Positions 14,741-22,980 of a stretch of 64,000 nt of DNA are shown here, in pieces (within the stretch, counting starts at the first letter, position 1; every line of letters begins with the position of its first letter). A model generated the notes under the pieces. That model ran no database searches, was not told the DNA's origin, and saw only the letters and a list, made by a program, of their open reading frames with translations. Location: contig CAWJKT010000011.1 in NCBI GenBank assembly GCA_963843375.1, positions 384,001 through 448,000 on the forward strand. The letters run 5' to 3'. The position numbers were made by a program, and so were the translations under genes. Origin of the DNA: an uncultured Pseudomonadota bacterium (GTDB lineage: Bacteria; Oederibacteriota; Muellerivitia; Muellerivitales; Muellerivitaceae).

Positions 14741-15427
14741 ATGCTCGATACCCTTCCCCAAGCCATCTCTTCTTTCGCCCCCTCGATCGACCAGATGCTT
14801 TACTTGATTTATTACATCACCGGATTTTTCTTCATCGTGATGGAAGGTTACTTGGTTTACTTGGTCGTTCGTTACCGTCATAAGAAAGGAACCGCCGCCA
14901 AATACGAACCCGGCAATACCTGGGCCCAAATTCAATGGATCATTGTTTTCTCGGTCGTTATTCTCGTCCTGGATTTAAGCATCGATATTAAGGGCGGAAA
15001 AACGTGGGCCGAAGTCAAGGAAAGCATGCCCGCCACCGATTTAACCGTCAAGGTTCAGGCCAAGCAATTTGACTGGACGTTCTTTTATCCCGACAAGGAT
15101 GGGAAGTTCGACACGCCTGGCGCCATTTCATCCTACCGCGAACTGCATGTCCCGGTGGGAAAGAAAATCCACGTCATCATGACTTCCCTGGACGTCATCC
15201 ATGATTTTTTTCTTCCTGAAATCCGTTTAAAACAGGATGTCATGCCTCAGCGGGAAATCAACGAATGGTTTGACACGACGCAAACAGGGACTTTCCACAT
15301 TGTTTGCGACGAACTTTGCGGTTTCGGCCATACCCGCATGACCGGAGTTTTACAAGTGGACGACCAGAAAACTTTCGATGATTGGCTGGCCCAAAAAGAT
15401 AAAGAAGAACACGGAGGTCAACAATGA
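14741..15427 (+). CDS. coxB: Heme-copper oxidase subunit II (CuA)
   Basis: Two TM helices; DVIH and CDELCGFGHTRM CuA ligands; no fused cytochrome c. Confidence 0.93.
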   Translation: MLDTLPQAISSFAPSIDQMLYLIYYITGFFFIVMEGYLVYLVVRYRHKKGTAAKYEPGNTWAQIQWIIVFSVVILVLDLSIDIKGGKTWAEVKESMPATDLTVKVQAKQFDWTFFYPDKDGKFDTPGAISSYRELHVPVGKKIHVIMTSLDVIHDFFLPEIRLKQDVMPQREINEWFDTTQTGTFHIVCDELCGFGHTRMTGVLQVDDQKTFDDWLAQKDKEEHGGQQ

Positions 15428-17115
15428 CGCAGGAACACGGCGAACATCACGATAGCCACGAGCACAAACAGAGTTTCTTCAGCCACTACATTTTCTCCAC
15501 CGACCATAAAATGATCGGGAAGCAGTTCCTTTTGCTTTCCATTGTCATGGCTTGTTTTGGCGGATTCATGGCTTACTTGATTCGATGGGAAGTGGCCTAT
15601 CCCAATGTTCCGGCGCCTTTTTTCGGTTTGGTCACGCCGGATAAATTCAACGCCATCATCACCCTACACGGAACCATCATGATCTTCTTCGTGGGAATGC
15701 CCTTCCTCTCGGCCTTTCCCTCGAACTTTTTGATTCCCTTGATGATCGGGGCGAGGGACATGGCTTTTCCCAAATTGAATATGGCTTCCTTCTGGCTGAC
15801 TTTCGCAGGCGCCACCAGCTTGATTTCGTCGCTTTTTGTTCCCGGAGGCCCGGTGGCAGGGGGCTGGGTAGGCTATCCGCCCCTCTCCGCTAGTTCGGAG
15901 TTCACGGGGGTGAAAATCGGCGCGGTCCTTTGGCTTTTGGCCCTCGCTTGCGCCTTTTTCTCCTCGAGCTTGGGTGGCTTGAATTATCTGGTGACCGCCA
16001 TCACCTTGAGGGCGCCCGGAATGACCTATTCCCGTTTCCCCATGACGGTCTGGTTTCTTCTCGCCTCTGCGGTGACCTTCTTCTTTTCAGTTGGTCCCCT
16101 CATCGCGGGAGCTTTTATGCTCATGATGGATAATGTATTTGGAACGGGCTTCTTTCTTCCGGCAAAGGGCGGAGAGCCTATGTTGTGGGAGCATCTATTT
16201 TGGTTTTTTGGCCATCCGGAAGTCTATGTCCTTTTCTTTCCGGCGCTGGGTATGGGGCTGGATATCCTTTCCACTTTCACCCGAAAACCCATTTTCGGCT
16301 ATAAACTCATTCTTTGGAGCACGGTCTCGGCAATTCTCCTGAGCTTCATCGTTTGGGCTCATCATATGTTCATGTCGGGTTTGAACCCGGTATTGGCCAC
16401 ACCTTTCTCCATCACGACCATCCTCATTTCCATCCCTTTCGCCATCATTATTTTTTGCATGTTGGCTACCCTCCGTCATGGCTCCATTCGCTTGGAACTT
16501 CCCATGCTTTGGATGCTGGGATTCCTTTCGACCTTCCTGATCGGGGGATTAACGGGAATCTTCCTGGGTTCGGCCACGGCCGATATTTATTTGCACGGAA
16601 CCTATTTCGTGGTAGCCCATTTCCACTACACACTCTTTCCGTCGGTCTTTTTCGGCGGTTTTTCCGCTGTTTATTATTGGTTCCCGAAAATGTATGGCCG
16701 CAAATTGAACGAGAAGCTGGGGCTTTTGCATTTAGCCCTGACCTTTTTATTTTTCAACGGAACCTTTTGGCCGCTCTTTAGGGTCGGTATGGGCGGGATG
16801 ATCCGCCGTATCGCCGATCCCTCCTTCTATCCCCAGTATCACCAATTTGCCGGTTGGAACATTTTTTCCACCATTTCCGCCCTATGCCTGATCGCTACCC
16901 AAAGCATTTTTCTTTGGAATTTGGTTTTGAGCATGAGGCACGGTCCTCTGGCCGGAAAGAATCCTTATGAGTCCAATACATTGGAATGGCTGGCCGATTC
17001 TCCTCCTCCCCATGGCAATTGGGGGCCCACCCTGCCGGTGGTTACCAGCGGTCCTTATGAATACAGCAAACCCGGAGAAGCCACCGATTGGCATCCCCAG
17101 GCACAAAACATTTAA
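15424..17115 (+). CDS. coxA: Heme-copper oxidase subunit I, A1-type motif, K-channel residues substituted
   Basis: STDHK, HGTIM, DMAFP, WFFGHPEVY, WAHHMF, VVAHFHY and RR pair. Confidence 0.95.
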   Translation: MTQEHGEHHDSHEHKQSFFSHYIFSTDHKMIGKQFLLLSIVMACFGGFMAYLIRWEVAYPNVPAPFFGLVTPDKFNAIITLHGTIMIFFVGMPFLSAFPSNFLIPLMIGARDMAFPKLNMASFWLTFAGATSLISSLFVPGGPVAGGWVGYPPLSASSEFTGVKIGAVLWLLALACAFFSSSLGGLNYLVTAITLRAPGMTYSRFPMTVWFLLASAVTFFFSVGPLIAGAFMLMMDNVFGTGFFLPAKGGEPMLWEHLFWFFGHPEVYVLFFPALGMGLDILSTFTRKPIFGYKLILWSTVSAILLSFIVWAHHMFMSGLNPVLATPFSITTILISIPFAIIIFCMLATLRHGSIRLELPMLWMLGFLSTFLIGGLTGIFLGSATADIYLHGTYFVVAHFHYTLFPSVFFGGFSAVYYWFPKMYGRKLNEKLGLLHLALTFLFFNGTFWPLFRVGMGGMIRRIADPSFYPQYHQFAGWNIFSTISALCLIATQSIFLWNLVLSMRHGPLAGKNPYESNTLEWLADSPPPHGNWGPTLPVVTSGPYEYSKPGEATDWHPQAQNI

Positions 17116-17136: not shown

Positions 17137-17766
17137 ATGGATAACAGCGCCAACATCTCCATGACTCCCCCGGTCCAAATCCTGGATGAGGGTCCCTGCG
17201 GACATAATTCCGCTCCCGCGGGTTTAACGGCGGGCCGTTTGGGCGTATGGGCTTTGATTTCCTCCGAAATTGTCCTTTTTGCGGGCCTCTTCGGTTCCTT
17301 TATTCTGATGCGCATGATCCATCCCGAATGGGCGGAGGAAGCCCGGCACCTGAATCTCGCTGCCGGTTCACTCAATTCCTTGGTCCTTTTGGTGAGCAAT
17401 TTTTTCATGATGAAGGCCGCTACTTCTGTCAAAGAGAGCCGACCGGATGATGTGAAAAAATTTCTGTTTTTAACCATGTTGATGGGGGTCGTCTTCCTCG
17501 GCATCAAAGCCTATGAGTACACCAATGAATTCGCCCATGGGGAGTTTCCATCCAGCCTGGGTTTCTGGTCCTTCTACTTTCTGATGACGGGCATCCACGC
17601 CACCCACATCATTGGAGGGTTGGTGGCCCTGGGAATCCTTTGGGTTAAGGCCATGAAGGGAACCCTGGGACCGATGCAAGGCCGGGTGGCCCTGACCGGC
17701 ATCTACTGGTCTTTCGTCGAAGTGGTCTGGATTTTCTTGTTTCCCATGCTTTATCTTTTAGCTTAA
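17137..17766 (+). CDS. coxC: Heme-copper oxidase subunit III (first copy)
   Basis: SEIVLFAGLF, EY, FYFLMTGIHATH and YWSFVEVVWIFLF. Confidence 0.9.
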   Translation: MDNSANISMTPPVQILDEGPCGHNSAPAGLTAGRLGVWALISSEIVLFAGLFGSFILMRMIHPEWAEEARHLNLAAGSLNSLVLLVSNFFMMKAATSVKESRPDDVKKFLFLTMLMGVVFLGIKAYEYTNEFAHGEFPSSLGFWSFYFLMTGIHATHIIGGLVALGILWVKAMKGTLGPMQGRVALTGIYWSFVEVVWIFLFPMLYLLA

Positions 17767-17791: not shown

Positions 17792-18091
17792 ATGGAATCG
17801 AAATCAACTTCCGGCAACCACATGGCTATCTTTTCGGCCCTGGTGGTATTAGTCCTCTGCGCGGTGGGGATCTTTTTCTTACATTTGCCCATCGTTCTTA
17901 ATAACCTTGCCATTTTCTCCGTTGCGATCTTGATGGCGGGTCTGGTTTTTTTCCAATACATGGATTTGAAATCGGAAGGCAAACTGATCTATTGGATTAT
18001 GGTCATCCCCATGGTCCTTTTCGCCATTCTTTTCGTTCTTTTCATTCCCGACGTCTGCCACTACTCCATCGATTTCCTTAAGGAGCTATAA
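17792..18091 (+). CDS. Oxidase subunit IV-like membrane protein
   Basis: Three hydrophobic segments; LV...YMDLK.E resembles the subunit IV FMHLK.E motif; operon position. Confidence 0.75.
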   Translation: MESKSTSGNHMAIFSALVVLVLCAVGIFFLHLPIVLNNLAIFSVAILMAGLVFFQYMDLKSEGKLIYWIMVIPMVLFAILFVLFIPDVCHYSIDFLKEL

Positions 18092-18092
18092 A

Positions 18093-18695
18093 TTGTTGGT
18101 CCTGGCCCCCGAGCCGAATGTTTCATCCGCCGGGCCCGTCTCCAACCGCCGCATGAGTCCCGCCAAGCTTGGCATCCTTCTGTTTATAGCGGCTGAAATC
18201 ATGTTCTTCAGCGGTTTGATCAGCGCTTTCGTGGTTTTCCGTTTCAGCCCGGTCCAATGGCCGCCCGCGGGACAACCCCGCCTTCCATTGGAAGTAACCG
18301 CCGTGAATACCCTTATCCTGCTTTTAAGCGGGTTCACTTTTTTCATCACCTTCCGAGCGTTGAGAGCTTCCCAAGAAGACAAATTCAAAAAACTCCTGAC
18401 CCTGACCGCGGTTCTGGGTTTGGTTTTCCTTCTGGTGCAAGGTTTTGAATGGATCCGTTTGCTTCATTTTGGACTGACCCTTCACAACAGTATCTTTGGG
18501 GGATTTTTTTACTGCCTGGTGGGCGTCCATGCGCTCCACGTGGCGGGCGGTTTGGCGGCCCTTCTTTACGTTCTTTCCCGGGCCTGGAGCGGAGCCTATA
18601 GCGCCCGTAATAGCTTGGGGGTTGAACTCTGCCAGATGTATTGGTTTTTCGTGGTAGGCCTTTGGCCGATCCTTTTCGCGCTGGTTTACCTATAA
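18093..18695 (+). CDS. Heme-copper oxidase subunit III (second copy)
   Basis: AEIMFFSGLISA, NT.ILLLSG, Q..EW, G.HALHV and YWFFV. Confidence 0.88.
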   Translation: MLVLAPEPNVSSAGPVSNRRMSPAKLGILLFIAAEIMFFSGLISAFVVFRFSPVQWPPAGQPRLPLEVTAVNTLILLLSGFTFFITFRALRASQEDKFKKLLTLTAVLGLVFLLVQGFEWIRLLHFGLTLHNSIFGGFFYCLVGVHALHVAGGLAALLYVLSRAWSGAYSARNSLGVELCQMYWFFVVGLWPILFALVYL

Positions 18696-18716: not shown

Positions 18717-18947
18717 ATGACGAAAAAAATTCACATTAAAACCTTCCTCCAAAAGTTTTTCCTGTTCCTATCCCTTGGGTTCATTCCTGCCCTAGCAGAA
18801 GCCTGTCCGAGATGTGTGGACGCCACACCTTACAAAATGGGCATGCAGATCGCGGTCGGAGTGCTTCTGCCGATTCCCTTTATCCTGGCTTACGGCATTT
18901 ATCTTTTCATTCAAAAAGAATCCAAAGCCGACTCTTCGCAGACTTAA
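18717..18947 (+). CDS. Small exported CxxC membrane protein ending the cox operon
   Basis: GGAGG RBS; signal peptide ending AEA, then CPRC, then one TM helix. Confidence 0.7.
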   Translation: MTKKIHIKTFLQKFFLFLSLGFIPALAEACPRCVDATPYKMGMQIAVGVLLPIPFILAYGIYLFIQKESKADSSQT

Positions 18948-21727: not shown

Positions 21728-22980
21728 ATGCCTCCGAAAGACAAAGCCCCCCACGCCCCCGACCCCTACGCGGTTTTCCGCCATCCCAATTTCCGATCTT
21801 ACCTCCTGGGCAACTTTCTGGCGGAAGCAGGTGAGCAGATGATCCGGGTGGCAGTGGGGTATGAAATTTTCCAGCGAACCCATTCCCCGATGGCACTGGG
21901 CCTGATCGGCCTGGCCCTTTGGCTGCCCATCTTTTTTTTCATGCTTCCGGGAGGCGCGGTGGCGGACCGCTATAACCGCAAGGCCATTGTCCTGATTTCC
22001 ATCTTTTTTTCGCGATTTGGGCTCTGGGTTTAGGACTAGCCCCTTTGACTTCCTTTCCCATTCCCCTCATGTATGCCTTCTTGTTTCTCACTGGGCTCAC
22101 GAAGGCCTTTTGCGATCCGGCCTACCGGGCCTTTCTGCCACAACTGGTTCCGGAAAAACATTTCACCGATGCCGTCAACTGGGGAAGCAACCTCTTTCAG
22201 TTGGGAACGGTAGTCGGGCCGGCCCTGGGCGGCATGCTTTACGCACGGCTTGGATACTCCTGTGTTTGTTGGCTGGAGGGAGGAATGGAACTGGCTTTTT
22301 TCGGGGCGGTACTGGCCATCCGTCAATCCCCGACCAAGTTCAAGGGTCGGCCCGTGAGCCTTCAATCCATCCTTTCGGGCCTGCAATATGTCCGCAAAAA
22401 GAGTCTCATTCTGGCTACCATCACAATGGACCTCTTTGTGGTGCTTTTCGGAGGTGCCATGGCCATGCTGCCCGCTTATGCGGACGATATCTTGCATTGC
22501 GGAGCTGCGGGGATGGGCTGGCTTTACGCCGCCCCGCCCACGGGGGCCTTTCTCGCTTCCCTCGTCCTGGCCCACCGGCCTCCCTTAAAAAAAGCTGGCG
22601 CCACCCTGCTTTGGTCGGTCGCGGGTTTCGGCCTTGCCACCATCGGTTTTGGGTTCTCCCGGTGGTTTTGGCTGTCCTTCCTTATGTTGGCGGCGACGGG
22701 GGCCTTGGATATGGTCAGCGTACTGGTGCGTGGAACCTTGGTGCAGGTCTTGACCCCCGATGCCCTCCGGGGCCGAGTGAACGCCGTCACCTTGATTTTC
22801 ATTCACTCCTCCGGCGAATTGGGAAGTTTTGAATCGGGTGTGGCGGCGTCTCTTTTGGGGCTGGTGCCTTCAGTGGTCTTGGGTGGGGTGGGTAGCATCC
22901 TGGTGGTGCTAGCGGTACTTCGGATTTGGCCTGAGGTTGGGCGGTTAAAGTCACTTCAAGGAGCCCGAAACCCGGGCTGA
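21728..22980 (+). pseudogene. MFS transporter (EntS/DUF894-like), split by a frameshift near the T7 run at 22004-22010
   Basis: ORF 21728-22033 (G.VADRYNRK) plus ORF 22045-22980 (DLFVVLFGGA.A.LP, TPDALRGRV) make one 12-TM protein. Confidence 0.8.

Follow-up and report, generated by a model that had tools for sequence, protein, structure and literature searches.

The window, as the stretch analysed here is called throughout, comprises 64 000 nucleotides of an uncultured Pseudomonadota bacterium (assembly GCA_963843375.1, contig CAWJKT010000011.1, positions 384,001 to 448,000), and carries on its plus strand, at 14741–17115, the genes for subunits II and I of an A1-type heme-copper oxidase. All canonical polar residues of the K proton path have been swapped in this enzyme, namely the subunit II Glu, the helix VI Ser and the Lys, Thr and Asn/Ser of helix VIII. 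The site of O2 reduction, the CuA centre through which electrons enter, the D channel and its gating Glu, and the Arg pair are all complete, and purifying selection on them is strong. The enzyme falls in a lysine-free sublineage of the A family that is real, well defined and widespread. From the sequences, we give about an even chance to the reading that the five cox genes, perhaps together with an open reading frame (ORF) of 76 amino acids (aa), would encode a functional cytochrome c:O2 oxidoreductase of the aa3 type that takes its protons through the D channel. The K-channel Lys is treated as essential in textbook A-type oxidases, the mitochondrial one included; here it is removed throughout a large and diverse lineage, and everything else is kept.

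The genes coxB (subunit II, 14741–15427, 228 aa) and coxA (subunit I, 15424–17115, 563 aa) overlap on the plus strand, and both reading frames are intact. CoxB was matched by Pfam COX2 (E = 2.4e-15) and comprises two transmembrane (TM) helices and a CuA cupredoxin domain, without a cytochrome c domain. CoxA was matched by Pfam COX1 (E = 6.6e-132) and carries the GHPEVY motif of the A1 type. Both proteins passed the Pfam cut-offs. The curated NCBIfam cut-offs were missed by CoxB (TIGR02866, 147.4 bits against 147.7) and by CoxA (TIGR02891 CtaD_CoxA, 558.1 bits against 670.75), and the oxidase is therefore a divergent member of its family. In phmmer searches of solved chains CoxA was matched by mycobacterial, Rhodobacter, Paracoccus, Thermus and mitochondrial subunit I (E = 1e-113 to 1e-99), the closest chain being 8hcr_F (E = 3.3e-113). 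An AlphaFold2 model of CoxA (predicted local distance difference test score 78.8, predicted template modelling score 0.84) contained twelve long helices, the first formed by residues 28–58.

The swapped residues were located by alignment to solved oxidases. Helix VIII, TILISIPFAIIIFCMLATL (16417–16473, residues 332–350), which contains S336, F339, I342, C345 and M346, was paired as 'ittilisipFaiIifcmlatl' with 'fmtyliavpTgiKffnwigtm' of mycobacterial CtaD, so that Phe stands for the Thr (F339) and Ile for the Lys (I342); further along the helix C345 replaces Asn/Ser and M346 replaces Trp. In helix VI (16210–16263) the phmmer alignment kept GHPEVY, with H264, E266 and Y268, and paired 'lGmgLDil' with 'fGivSEif', which puts L279 (16258–16260) at the helix VI Ser. 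In the second TM helix (TM2) of subunit II (residues 61–84, 14921–14992), 'gntwaQiqW' was paired with 'hnsplEiaW' of R. sphaeroides, and Q63 (14927–14929) takes the place of E101; the same helix carries D78 (14972–14974) and D82 (14984–14986). The substitutions are thus hydrophobic in subunit I and Gln for Glu in subunit II. Of the residues by which a K channel is recognised (Lys354, Thr351, Ser291 and Tyr280 in P. denitrificans numbering, PMC3084760, Table 2, and the subunit II Glu), the Tyr alone is kept. The original prediction, made from the letters of the window, had read the Thr to Phe and Lys to Ile changes in helix VIII at about 16417–16473, the loss of the helix VI Ser in LGMGLD and that of the entry Glu in NTWAQIQW. 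The alignments to solved oxidases returned the same columns for all of them and restored no Lys in the Lys column, which is occupied by Ile.

The metal ligands, the D channel and the Arg pair of subunit I are kept, again as had been predicted. H82, H264, H313, H314, H399, H401, Y268, E266, N101, D112, N119, N187, R461 and R462 are all present in CoxA. Among the 134 aligned rows of the subclade to which the window belongs (see below), the cross-linking Tyr Y268 and the gating Glu E266 (GHPEVY, residues 263–268) are found in 134/134, the six His ligands of heme a, heme a3 and CuB together with R461 and R462 in at least 133/134, and the D-channel residues N101, D112, N119, S122 and N187 in at least 132/134 each. 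The CuA ligands of subunit II (His, Cys-x-Glu-x-Cys, His, Met) are likewise kept and align with those of R. sphaeroides, 'cdelcgfghtrm' being paired with 'cselcgishaym'. As read from the sequence, this site is that of a cytochrome c oxidase rather than a quinol oxidase.

This conservation bears on whether the scaffold has been turned to another chemistry, as a peroxidase, an NO reductase or an O2 scavenger that conserves no energy. Laboratory Lys mutants keep peroxide-driven turnover, and the surroundings of the operon also point this way: in related genomes (loci L107, L109, L111, L112 and L113) its neighbours include, besides a ZIP transporter, the O2-using fatty-acid desaturase and AurF-like diiron oxygenase and, once, a hemerythrin, and in the window a gene for a Cu/Zn superoxide dismutase lies 5 kb from the operon. 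Set against these points are the invariance of the Tyr, of E266, of the His ligands of CuB and of the D channel as a whole, and the presence and conservation of two copies of subunit III and a subunit IV. The oxidase-derived NO-reductase families defined in the accessible part of PMC11214002 are without the Tyr, which is kept here as Y268. With the Tyr and all CuB ligands invariant, peroxide or NO chemistry is improbable; we regard a changed reaction of any of these kinds as very unlikely, and the peroxide or NO reductase put forward in the original prediction is not favoured, since Y268, E266 and the three His ligands of CuB do not vary.

That the changes are the product of error or decay was also considered. 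Such an origin would be in keeping with the state of the source genome, which is a draft of 32 contigs (80% complete, 4% contamination), and with a frameshifted oxidase copy elsewhere in the host genome. It is refuted by the ratio of nonsynonymous to synonymous substitution rates (dN/dS), the intact frames, the homologues and identical contigs, and its probability is negligible. Against a genome of the same genus, coxA gave dN 0.013, dS 0.94 and dN/dS 0.014, which is not the mark of a decaying gene. Against ten more distant genomes from its family, with one from its phylum, the ratio came to 0.035–0.135 in the eight for which it was computable, all at saturated dS; for coxB it was 0.06–0.19 in the comparisons that gave a dS value. 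In public sequencing runs of two studies, contigs cover coxB and coxA without differences (the best of these runs may be the source sample itself), and a 600-base contig from a run of a second study matched 16219–16818, helix VIII included, with zero differing letters. Among the 120 best of 8000 scored homologues (56–95% identity), the Lys position is hydrophobic in 120/120 and the Thr position is Phe in 118/120. The argument that separate in-frame changes speak against sequencing error was thus borne out, and close homologues, far from keeping the Lys, lack it throughout this set.

The extent of the lineage was examined in a subunit I alignment of 221 rows, 68 with the Lys and 153 without, drawn from 80 named genome loci (found by generic A-family patterns), 20 loci from related genomes and the 120 database homologues. 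In a maximum-likelihood tree built with the K-path columns removed, the window's CoxA was placed in a clade in which 30/30 rows are lysine-free, with a Shimodaira–Hasegawa-like approximate likelihood ratio test (SH-aLRT) support of 99, which upholds the suggestion of a distinct subfamily. The lysine-free rows form three supported clades, the window's and two others named after their helix VIII patterns, 'PSS[VI]F' and 'PSVxI'. The tree requires at least two changes of Lys state, of which strongly supported branches force only one; a single origin of the loss is compatible with the well-supported branches. The window's clade has two parts. Its own 'PFAxI' subclade (the 134 aligned rows) holds metagenome-assembled genomes (MAGs) named NC10, Rokubacteria, Binatia and Thermodesulfobacteriota by their sources, and the sister 'PIAEM' subclade holds Gemmatimonadota, Myxococcota, Eisenbacteria, a Puniceicoccaceae isolate and a Flavobacteriaceae MAG.

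Column counts separated the two kinds of row. Rows with the Lys carry, in 68/68 each, Ser/Thr291, Lys354, Ser/Thr351, Asn/Ser357, Trp358, an Ile in helix VII and Ala or Gly one turn above Thr351. At this last position all lysine-free rows carry a Ser, Ser336 in the window (153/153 against 0/68; 134/134 in the window's subclade). In the same subclade F339 is found in 132/134 rows, position 342 is hydrophobic (Ile, Leu, Val or Met) in 134/134, Asn/Ser357 is changed to Ala or Cys and Trp358 to Met. The helix VI Ser column, which is Ser or Thr in 68/68 lysine-bearing rows, reads Leu in 93, Ala in 18, Met in 9, Cys in 6, Phe in 4 and Ser in 2 of the 134. Ala303 of helix VII (127/134) stands where the lysine rows have Ile (68/68), and Thr403, immediately after the HFHY motif, is found in 131/134 rows against 4/68. 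The Ser residues of helix VII were less discriminating: Ser307 is present in 150/153 lysine-free rows but also in 28/68 lysine rows, and Ser299 in 19/68 lysine rows.

Further out, 60/147 of the nearest 50%-identity cluster representatives, a sample biased towards the neighbourhood of the query, are without the Lys, and the statement that this residue is nearly invariant in A-family oxidases cannot be maintained in that form. Ser336 accompanies the loss less strictly at this distance (29/60 representatives without the Lys, 1/87 with it). A Gln in place of the channel Lys ('PSGVQVF') was seen in 18/147 representatives (P0286, P0292–P0297, P0312, P0313 and others), most of which are about 800–850 aa long and may be fusions with subunit III.

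The related lysine-free groups showed patterns of their own. Seven 'PIAEM' loci (L006, L007, L008, L013, L024, L025 and L040) all have a Glu directly before the position of the lost Lys, and Thr at helix VII positions 299 and 303 (7/7 each), as if the loss had been dealt with in another way. Upstream genes were annotated at five of them (L006, L007, L008, L024, L025), and at all five coxB is preceded by a gene for a diheme cytochrome c, as it is in L016. The 'PSS[VI]F' oxidases (L100–L103, L112 and L113, in genomes G016, G010, G021 and G012) come from the window's own family, are about 50% identical to its CoxA and are accompanied by a single coxC; at the annotated loci of G016 and G012 a desaturase gene is adjacent, and in G012 also the ZIP transporter that flanks the window's operon. 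The 'PSVxI' clade reads AHPEVY and comprises L035, L042, L044, L053, L061 and L076, from Verrucomicrobiota, Neomarinimicrobiota and Thermoanaerobaculia. A gene resembling subunit II was found at four of these loci, downstream of coxA in three and upstream in L076; a regular-expression test, the only one applied, found the CuA Cys/His/Met motif absent from its product, which has two TM2 Glu residues seven positions apart in 3/4. The 'PSVxI' enzyme is a possible quinol oxidase in which a carboxylate would stand in for the Lys.

Subunit II was found to co-vary with subunit I. At loci with both genes the entry Glu is present in 43/44 lysine loci (the remaining row is truncated) and in 5/25 lysine-free loci. 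CoxB homologues of at least 200 aa, 115 of the 120 among the matches listed, were aligned, and in 99 of the 115 four residues are inserted where TM2 reaches its outer end. The motif 'LDLxIDxxG' spans this insertion and holds D78 and D82; where the insertion is present, Asp78 is found in 99/99 rows, Asp82 in 98/99 and Lys or Arg at position 84 in 64/99, and the entry residue is Gln in 71, Glu in 23, Asp in 2, His in 2 and Lys in 1. The remaining 16 homologues have neither the insertion nor the Asp, and all have the entry Glu. Neither Asp78 nor the insertion occurs in CoxB from lysine-bearing loci (0/44). The first TM2 Asp is shared by the 'PIAEM' subclade and the 'PSS[VI]F' clade, and 'PSS[VI]F' oxidases keep the entry Glu in 3/3 full rows. 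By alignment to R. sphaeroides Glu101, Asp78 lies 14–15 residues above the entry position, that is in the upper membrane and not at the depth of the lost Lys. A Glu in the first TM helix of subunit II (E35) was weighed as a possible compensation for the loss and discarded, being present in 76/115 CoxB homologues but also in 12/44 rows from lysine loci.

On the reading favoured above, the old K path would be closed, with a nearly invariant Phe at the Thr position, and cytoplasmic protons, including those that canonically pass through the K path during reduction of the active site, would enter by the D channel through E266. Judged by helix geometry, Ser336 shares a helix face with the lost Thr and may take over the hydrogen bond to the region of the Tyr and the farnesyl hydroxyl; the invariant Asp78 of TM2 would be a co-evolved part of this remodelling. 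Several observations weigh against it. Canonical A1 enzymes mutated at the Lys in the laboratory have almost no activity despite an intact D channel, and supply by the D channel alone would therefore need further adaptation. The conservation of Ser336 and Asp78 could instead be the sign of a substitute route. The entry carboxylate is kept in 25/99 insertion-type CoxB rows, so the entrance is not uniformly dismantled. The 134 subclade rows are related, a few of them identical (P0017/L097 and P0018/L098), and their counts are not independent events. No electron-donor gene was found beside the operon within the window. The original proposal of an enzyme running on the D channel alone fits the complete conservation of that channel. 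Ser336 and the Asp78/Asp82 pair, also conserved in the clade, could form or feed another route.

Such a route might be a rebuilt K path leading from Asp78, with or without Asp82, in subunit II TM2 by way of Ser336 and Ser299/Ser307, with the Ile to Ala change at 303 making a cavity. The co-variation of Asp78 (99/99) and Ser336 (153/153) with loss of the Lys would be accounted for, as would Ala303 (127/134, against Ile in 68/68) and the enrichment of Ser307 (150/153 against 28/68). The sister 'PIAEM' subclade, with its Glu beside the Lys position and its two Thr residues (all 7/7), is consistent with a path of this kind, and in the separate 'PSVxI' clade the second Glu two turns up TM2 suggests that a carboxylate for the channel can come from this helix. 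The proposal is close to that of Degli Esposti, similar A1 patterns being classed as 'KC-channel' in the supplement of PMC8239418. The position of Asp78 tells against it: below this upper-membrane residue lie the hydrophobic F339, I342 and L279, and the sequence therefore shows no chain of polar residues leading to the cytoplasm. Ser299 and Ser307, moreover, occur in lysine-bearing rows too (19/68 and 28/68). A helix VII Ser channel of the 'KC' type was rejected as the full explanation, as its residues, though enriched in lysine-free rows, are found in these same 19 and 28 of the 68. A rebuilt K path is accordingly held to be a serious but rather unlikely alternative to supply through the D channel.

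The placing of the carboxylates allows another alternative, in which the protons of the K path are taken from the periplasm through an Asp78–Asp82 ladder and fewer charges are moved per O2. Asp78 and Asp82 are spaced i, i+4 at the outer end of TM2 and are followed by Lys/Arg84 (64/99). Oxidases of the rus operon work with a very high-potential donor, and those of acidophilic iron oxidisers are listed as lysine-free in the table for Fig. S7 of PMC8239418; for cNOR, proton uptake from the periplasm is described in the accessible part of PMC11214002. If the alternative were correct, periplasmic protons would reach the Tyr region through Ser336, and the enzyme would move fewer charges per O2 than any A-type oxidase studied, which would go well with donors of high potential or with a high membrane potential and would explain the new carboxylates on the subunit II helix in several lysine-free clades. 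It is drawn from sequence, and the full pumping apparatus (D channel and E266) is kept. The sister subclade, besides, has the first Asp only, followed by hydrophobic residues ('CDVFIIVAA'), and genes for a high-potential donor were not found near the operon in the window, cyc2, cyc1 and rusticyanin-like neighbours being absent from it. We consider periplasmic supply improbable, and supply through the D channel is retained as the preferred reading.

The operon continues downstream of coxA on the plus strand with coxC (short subunit III-like, 17137–17766, 209 aa; Pfam COX3, E = 5.7e-14), coxD (small subunit IV-like, 17792–18091, 99 aa) and coxC' (second subunit III-like, 18093–18695, 200 aa; Pfam COX3, E = 2.6e-25). 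For coxD the scores were below the cut-offs of both models, with 36.7 bits for TIGR02229 caa3_sub_IV (cut-off 37.25) and 23.1 bits for Pfam COX4_pro. The order coxB-coxA-coxC-coxD-coxC' recurs through the lysine-free clade. Lysine-bearing sister clades have a pair of COX3 genes too, arranged C-C-(D), so this feature is older than the loss of the Lys. The small conserved ORF from the ORF list (18717–18947, plus strand, 76 aa) is a putative member of the operon: a homologue comes immediately after coxC' in G001 and G018, and an ORF with its motif lies within the coxA loci of G009 and G013. By eye it has a hydrophobic, signal-peptide-like N-terminal stretch, an 'ACPxCVD' motif and a hydrophobic C-terminal stretch; it had zero Pfam or NCBIfam matches at E up to 1, and it may be an accessory or assembly protein of the oxidase. 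A promoter and terminator scan gave nothing usable, promoter-like sites being fewer than in shuffled sequence.

Neighbours of the operon in the window (genes for a ZIP transporter, HPr, an MFS transporter, VIT1 and others) are uninformative on function. Two ORFs at 21728–22033 and 22045–22980 on the plus strand correspond to the N-terminal and the remaining part of one MFS_3/MFS_1 transporter, whose gene may have been broken by a stop or a frameshift. Elsewhere in its genome the host has a canonical caa3 oxidase (contig C9, L001) that keeps the Lys, Thr, Ser and subunit II Glu and has a cytochrome b gene beside it, and it has cytochrome bd, so the lysine-free oxidase would be an additional terminal oxidase. 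A match to CtaA (heme A synthase) indicates that the host can make heme A. A second caa3 cluster outside the window (G000:C11:339400-346200; L003–L005 and L119) contains a fusion of coxA with coxC, a coxB whose product has a cytochrome c domain, and an adjoining cytochrome b gene; its subunit I is split over three frames, and this copy could be a pseudogene, an assembly error or a mixture of strains.

As a natural lineage without the Lys, these enzymes offer a ready-made test of the need for the K path and of the D channel or a subunit II carboxylate as its replacement. The residue signature of the lysine-free forms examined (Ser336, Ala303 and Thr403 in subunit I; the insertion with Asp78 and Asp82 in subunit II) defines the exact mutants to make. 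Bench work looks possible, since a named isolate, Puniceicoccaceae bacterium K14 (L016), which is not a MAG, carries a member of the sister subclade.

A-type oxidases without the K-channel Lys are already documented from sequences, in a 2020 preprint and a 2021 supplement, and in the literature searched, mostly outside subscription journals, a lysine-free A-family oxidase is mentioned only in the papers of Degli Esposti and in a preprint on Ferrigenium. The objection that the clade is already characterised thus holds in a weak sense only, such oxidases being known in catalogues drawn up from sequences; no biochemical study of a lysine-free A1 enzyme was found in that literature, and the signature Ser336/Ala303/Thr403/Asp78/Asp82 was not found in the accessible literature on lysine-free oxidases. 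Standard classifications give A-type enzymes a K channel (PMC3084760, Table 2; PMC11214002, accessible part). In the accessible text of the 2020 preprint (bioRxiv 10.1101/2020.03.01.968255) the oxidases of acidophilic iron oxidisers and their relatives carry Ile, Val, Met or Phe at K354 and a non-acidic residue for the COX2 Glu; its authors inferred that these enzymes lack the K channel and conserve the D channel. The same text describes, in Gemmatimonadetes MAGs, related gene clusters in which two COX3 genes accompany a diheme c4-type cytochrome, and the sister-subclade loci annotated here match these clusters as far as they are described there.

Enzymes outside the A family are the more distant comparison. 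Like the window's enzyme, the B-family ba3 oxidases and cNOR belong to the heme-copper enzymes and do without the A-type Lys; the B type uses a Thr/Ser/Tyr path (PMC3084760, Table 2). The window's oxidase, however, keeps the D channel that is absent in the B type and the Tyr that is absent in NO reductases, and belongs to the A family by every score. New NO-reductase families are defined by loss of the active-site Tyr in the accessible part of PMC11214002; CoxA shows neither this loss nor an altered metal site (FeB with Glu, or changed His). Within the A family, Ferrigenium straubiae has an oxidase whose K channel is described as absent in subunits I and II and whose function 'remains unclear' according to its authors (bioRxiv 10.64898/2026.01.22.701106, accessible part); its operon, given there as coxBA11C, is unlike that of the window. 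The oxidase of the rus operon ('2TM, modified K-channel' in the accessible part of its description) shares HPEVY, a conserved D channel and a replaced K354 with the window's, but has two extra N-terminal helices and Thr at T351 (PMC8239418), where the window has twelve helices and Phe. Given the twelve helices of the model, the window's enzyme is excluded from the 2TM subgroup but not from the A1 'KC' subgroup. By the position of two COX3 genes after COX1 its operon is of the published type a-III, for which, unlike here, the K channel is given as present (PMC8239418); COX1 of Flavobacterium johnsoniae is tabulated there as having the Lys.

Closest among the catalogued forms are the A1 'KC' oxidases of Degli Esposti 2021 (PMC8239418), whose tables mark three A1 subclades 'no, KC': Elusimicrobia, Calescamantes with Methylacidiphilaceae, and Oligoflexia. 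The window's enzyme shares with them the A1 type, the lack of extra N-terminal helices and a non-ionisable residue at K354 (I342), by which lysine-free forms are catalogued; the replacement of the COX2 entry Glu (E78), which counts towards the 'KC' class, is found in the window as Q63, though it is not universal in the clade. The published Elusimicrobia pattern, Y A I S C E G I S S T, resembles that of the window, which by our mapping reads Y L I F C D G I S S Q. In the T351 column the window has Phe, and the listed A1 'KC' rows have Ser and in one case Phe. The accessible part of PMC8239418 makes no mention of the subunit II Asp or of Ser336.

Measured against the canonical A1 aa3 oxidases (1m56, 1ar1, 8hcr/6adq), the window's enzyme has the same twelve-helix subunit I, His ligands, HPEVY motif, D channel, Arg pair and CuA site, and matches the chains of R. 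sphaeroides and P. denitrificans and mycobacterial CtaD with E = 3.3e-113 to 1e-102. It differs from them in the replacement of the K-path Lys and Thr, the helix VI Ser, Asn/Ser357, Trp358 and the subunit II Glu, and in having Ser336, Ala303, Thr403, the insertion with Asp78 and Asp82 and two short genes for subunit III.

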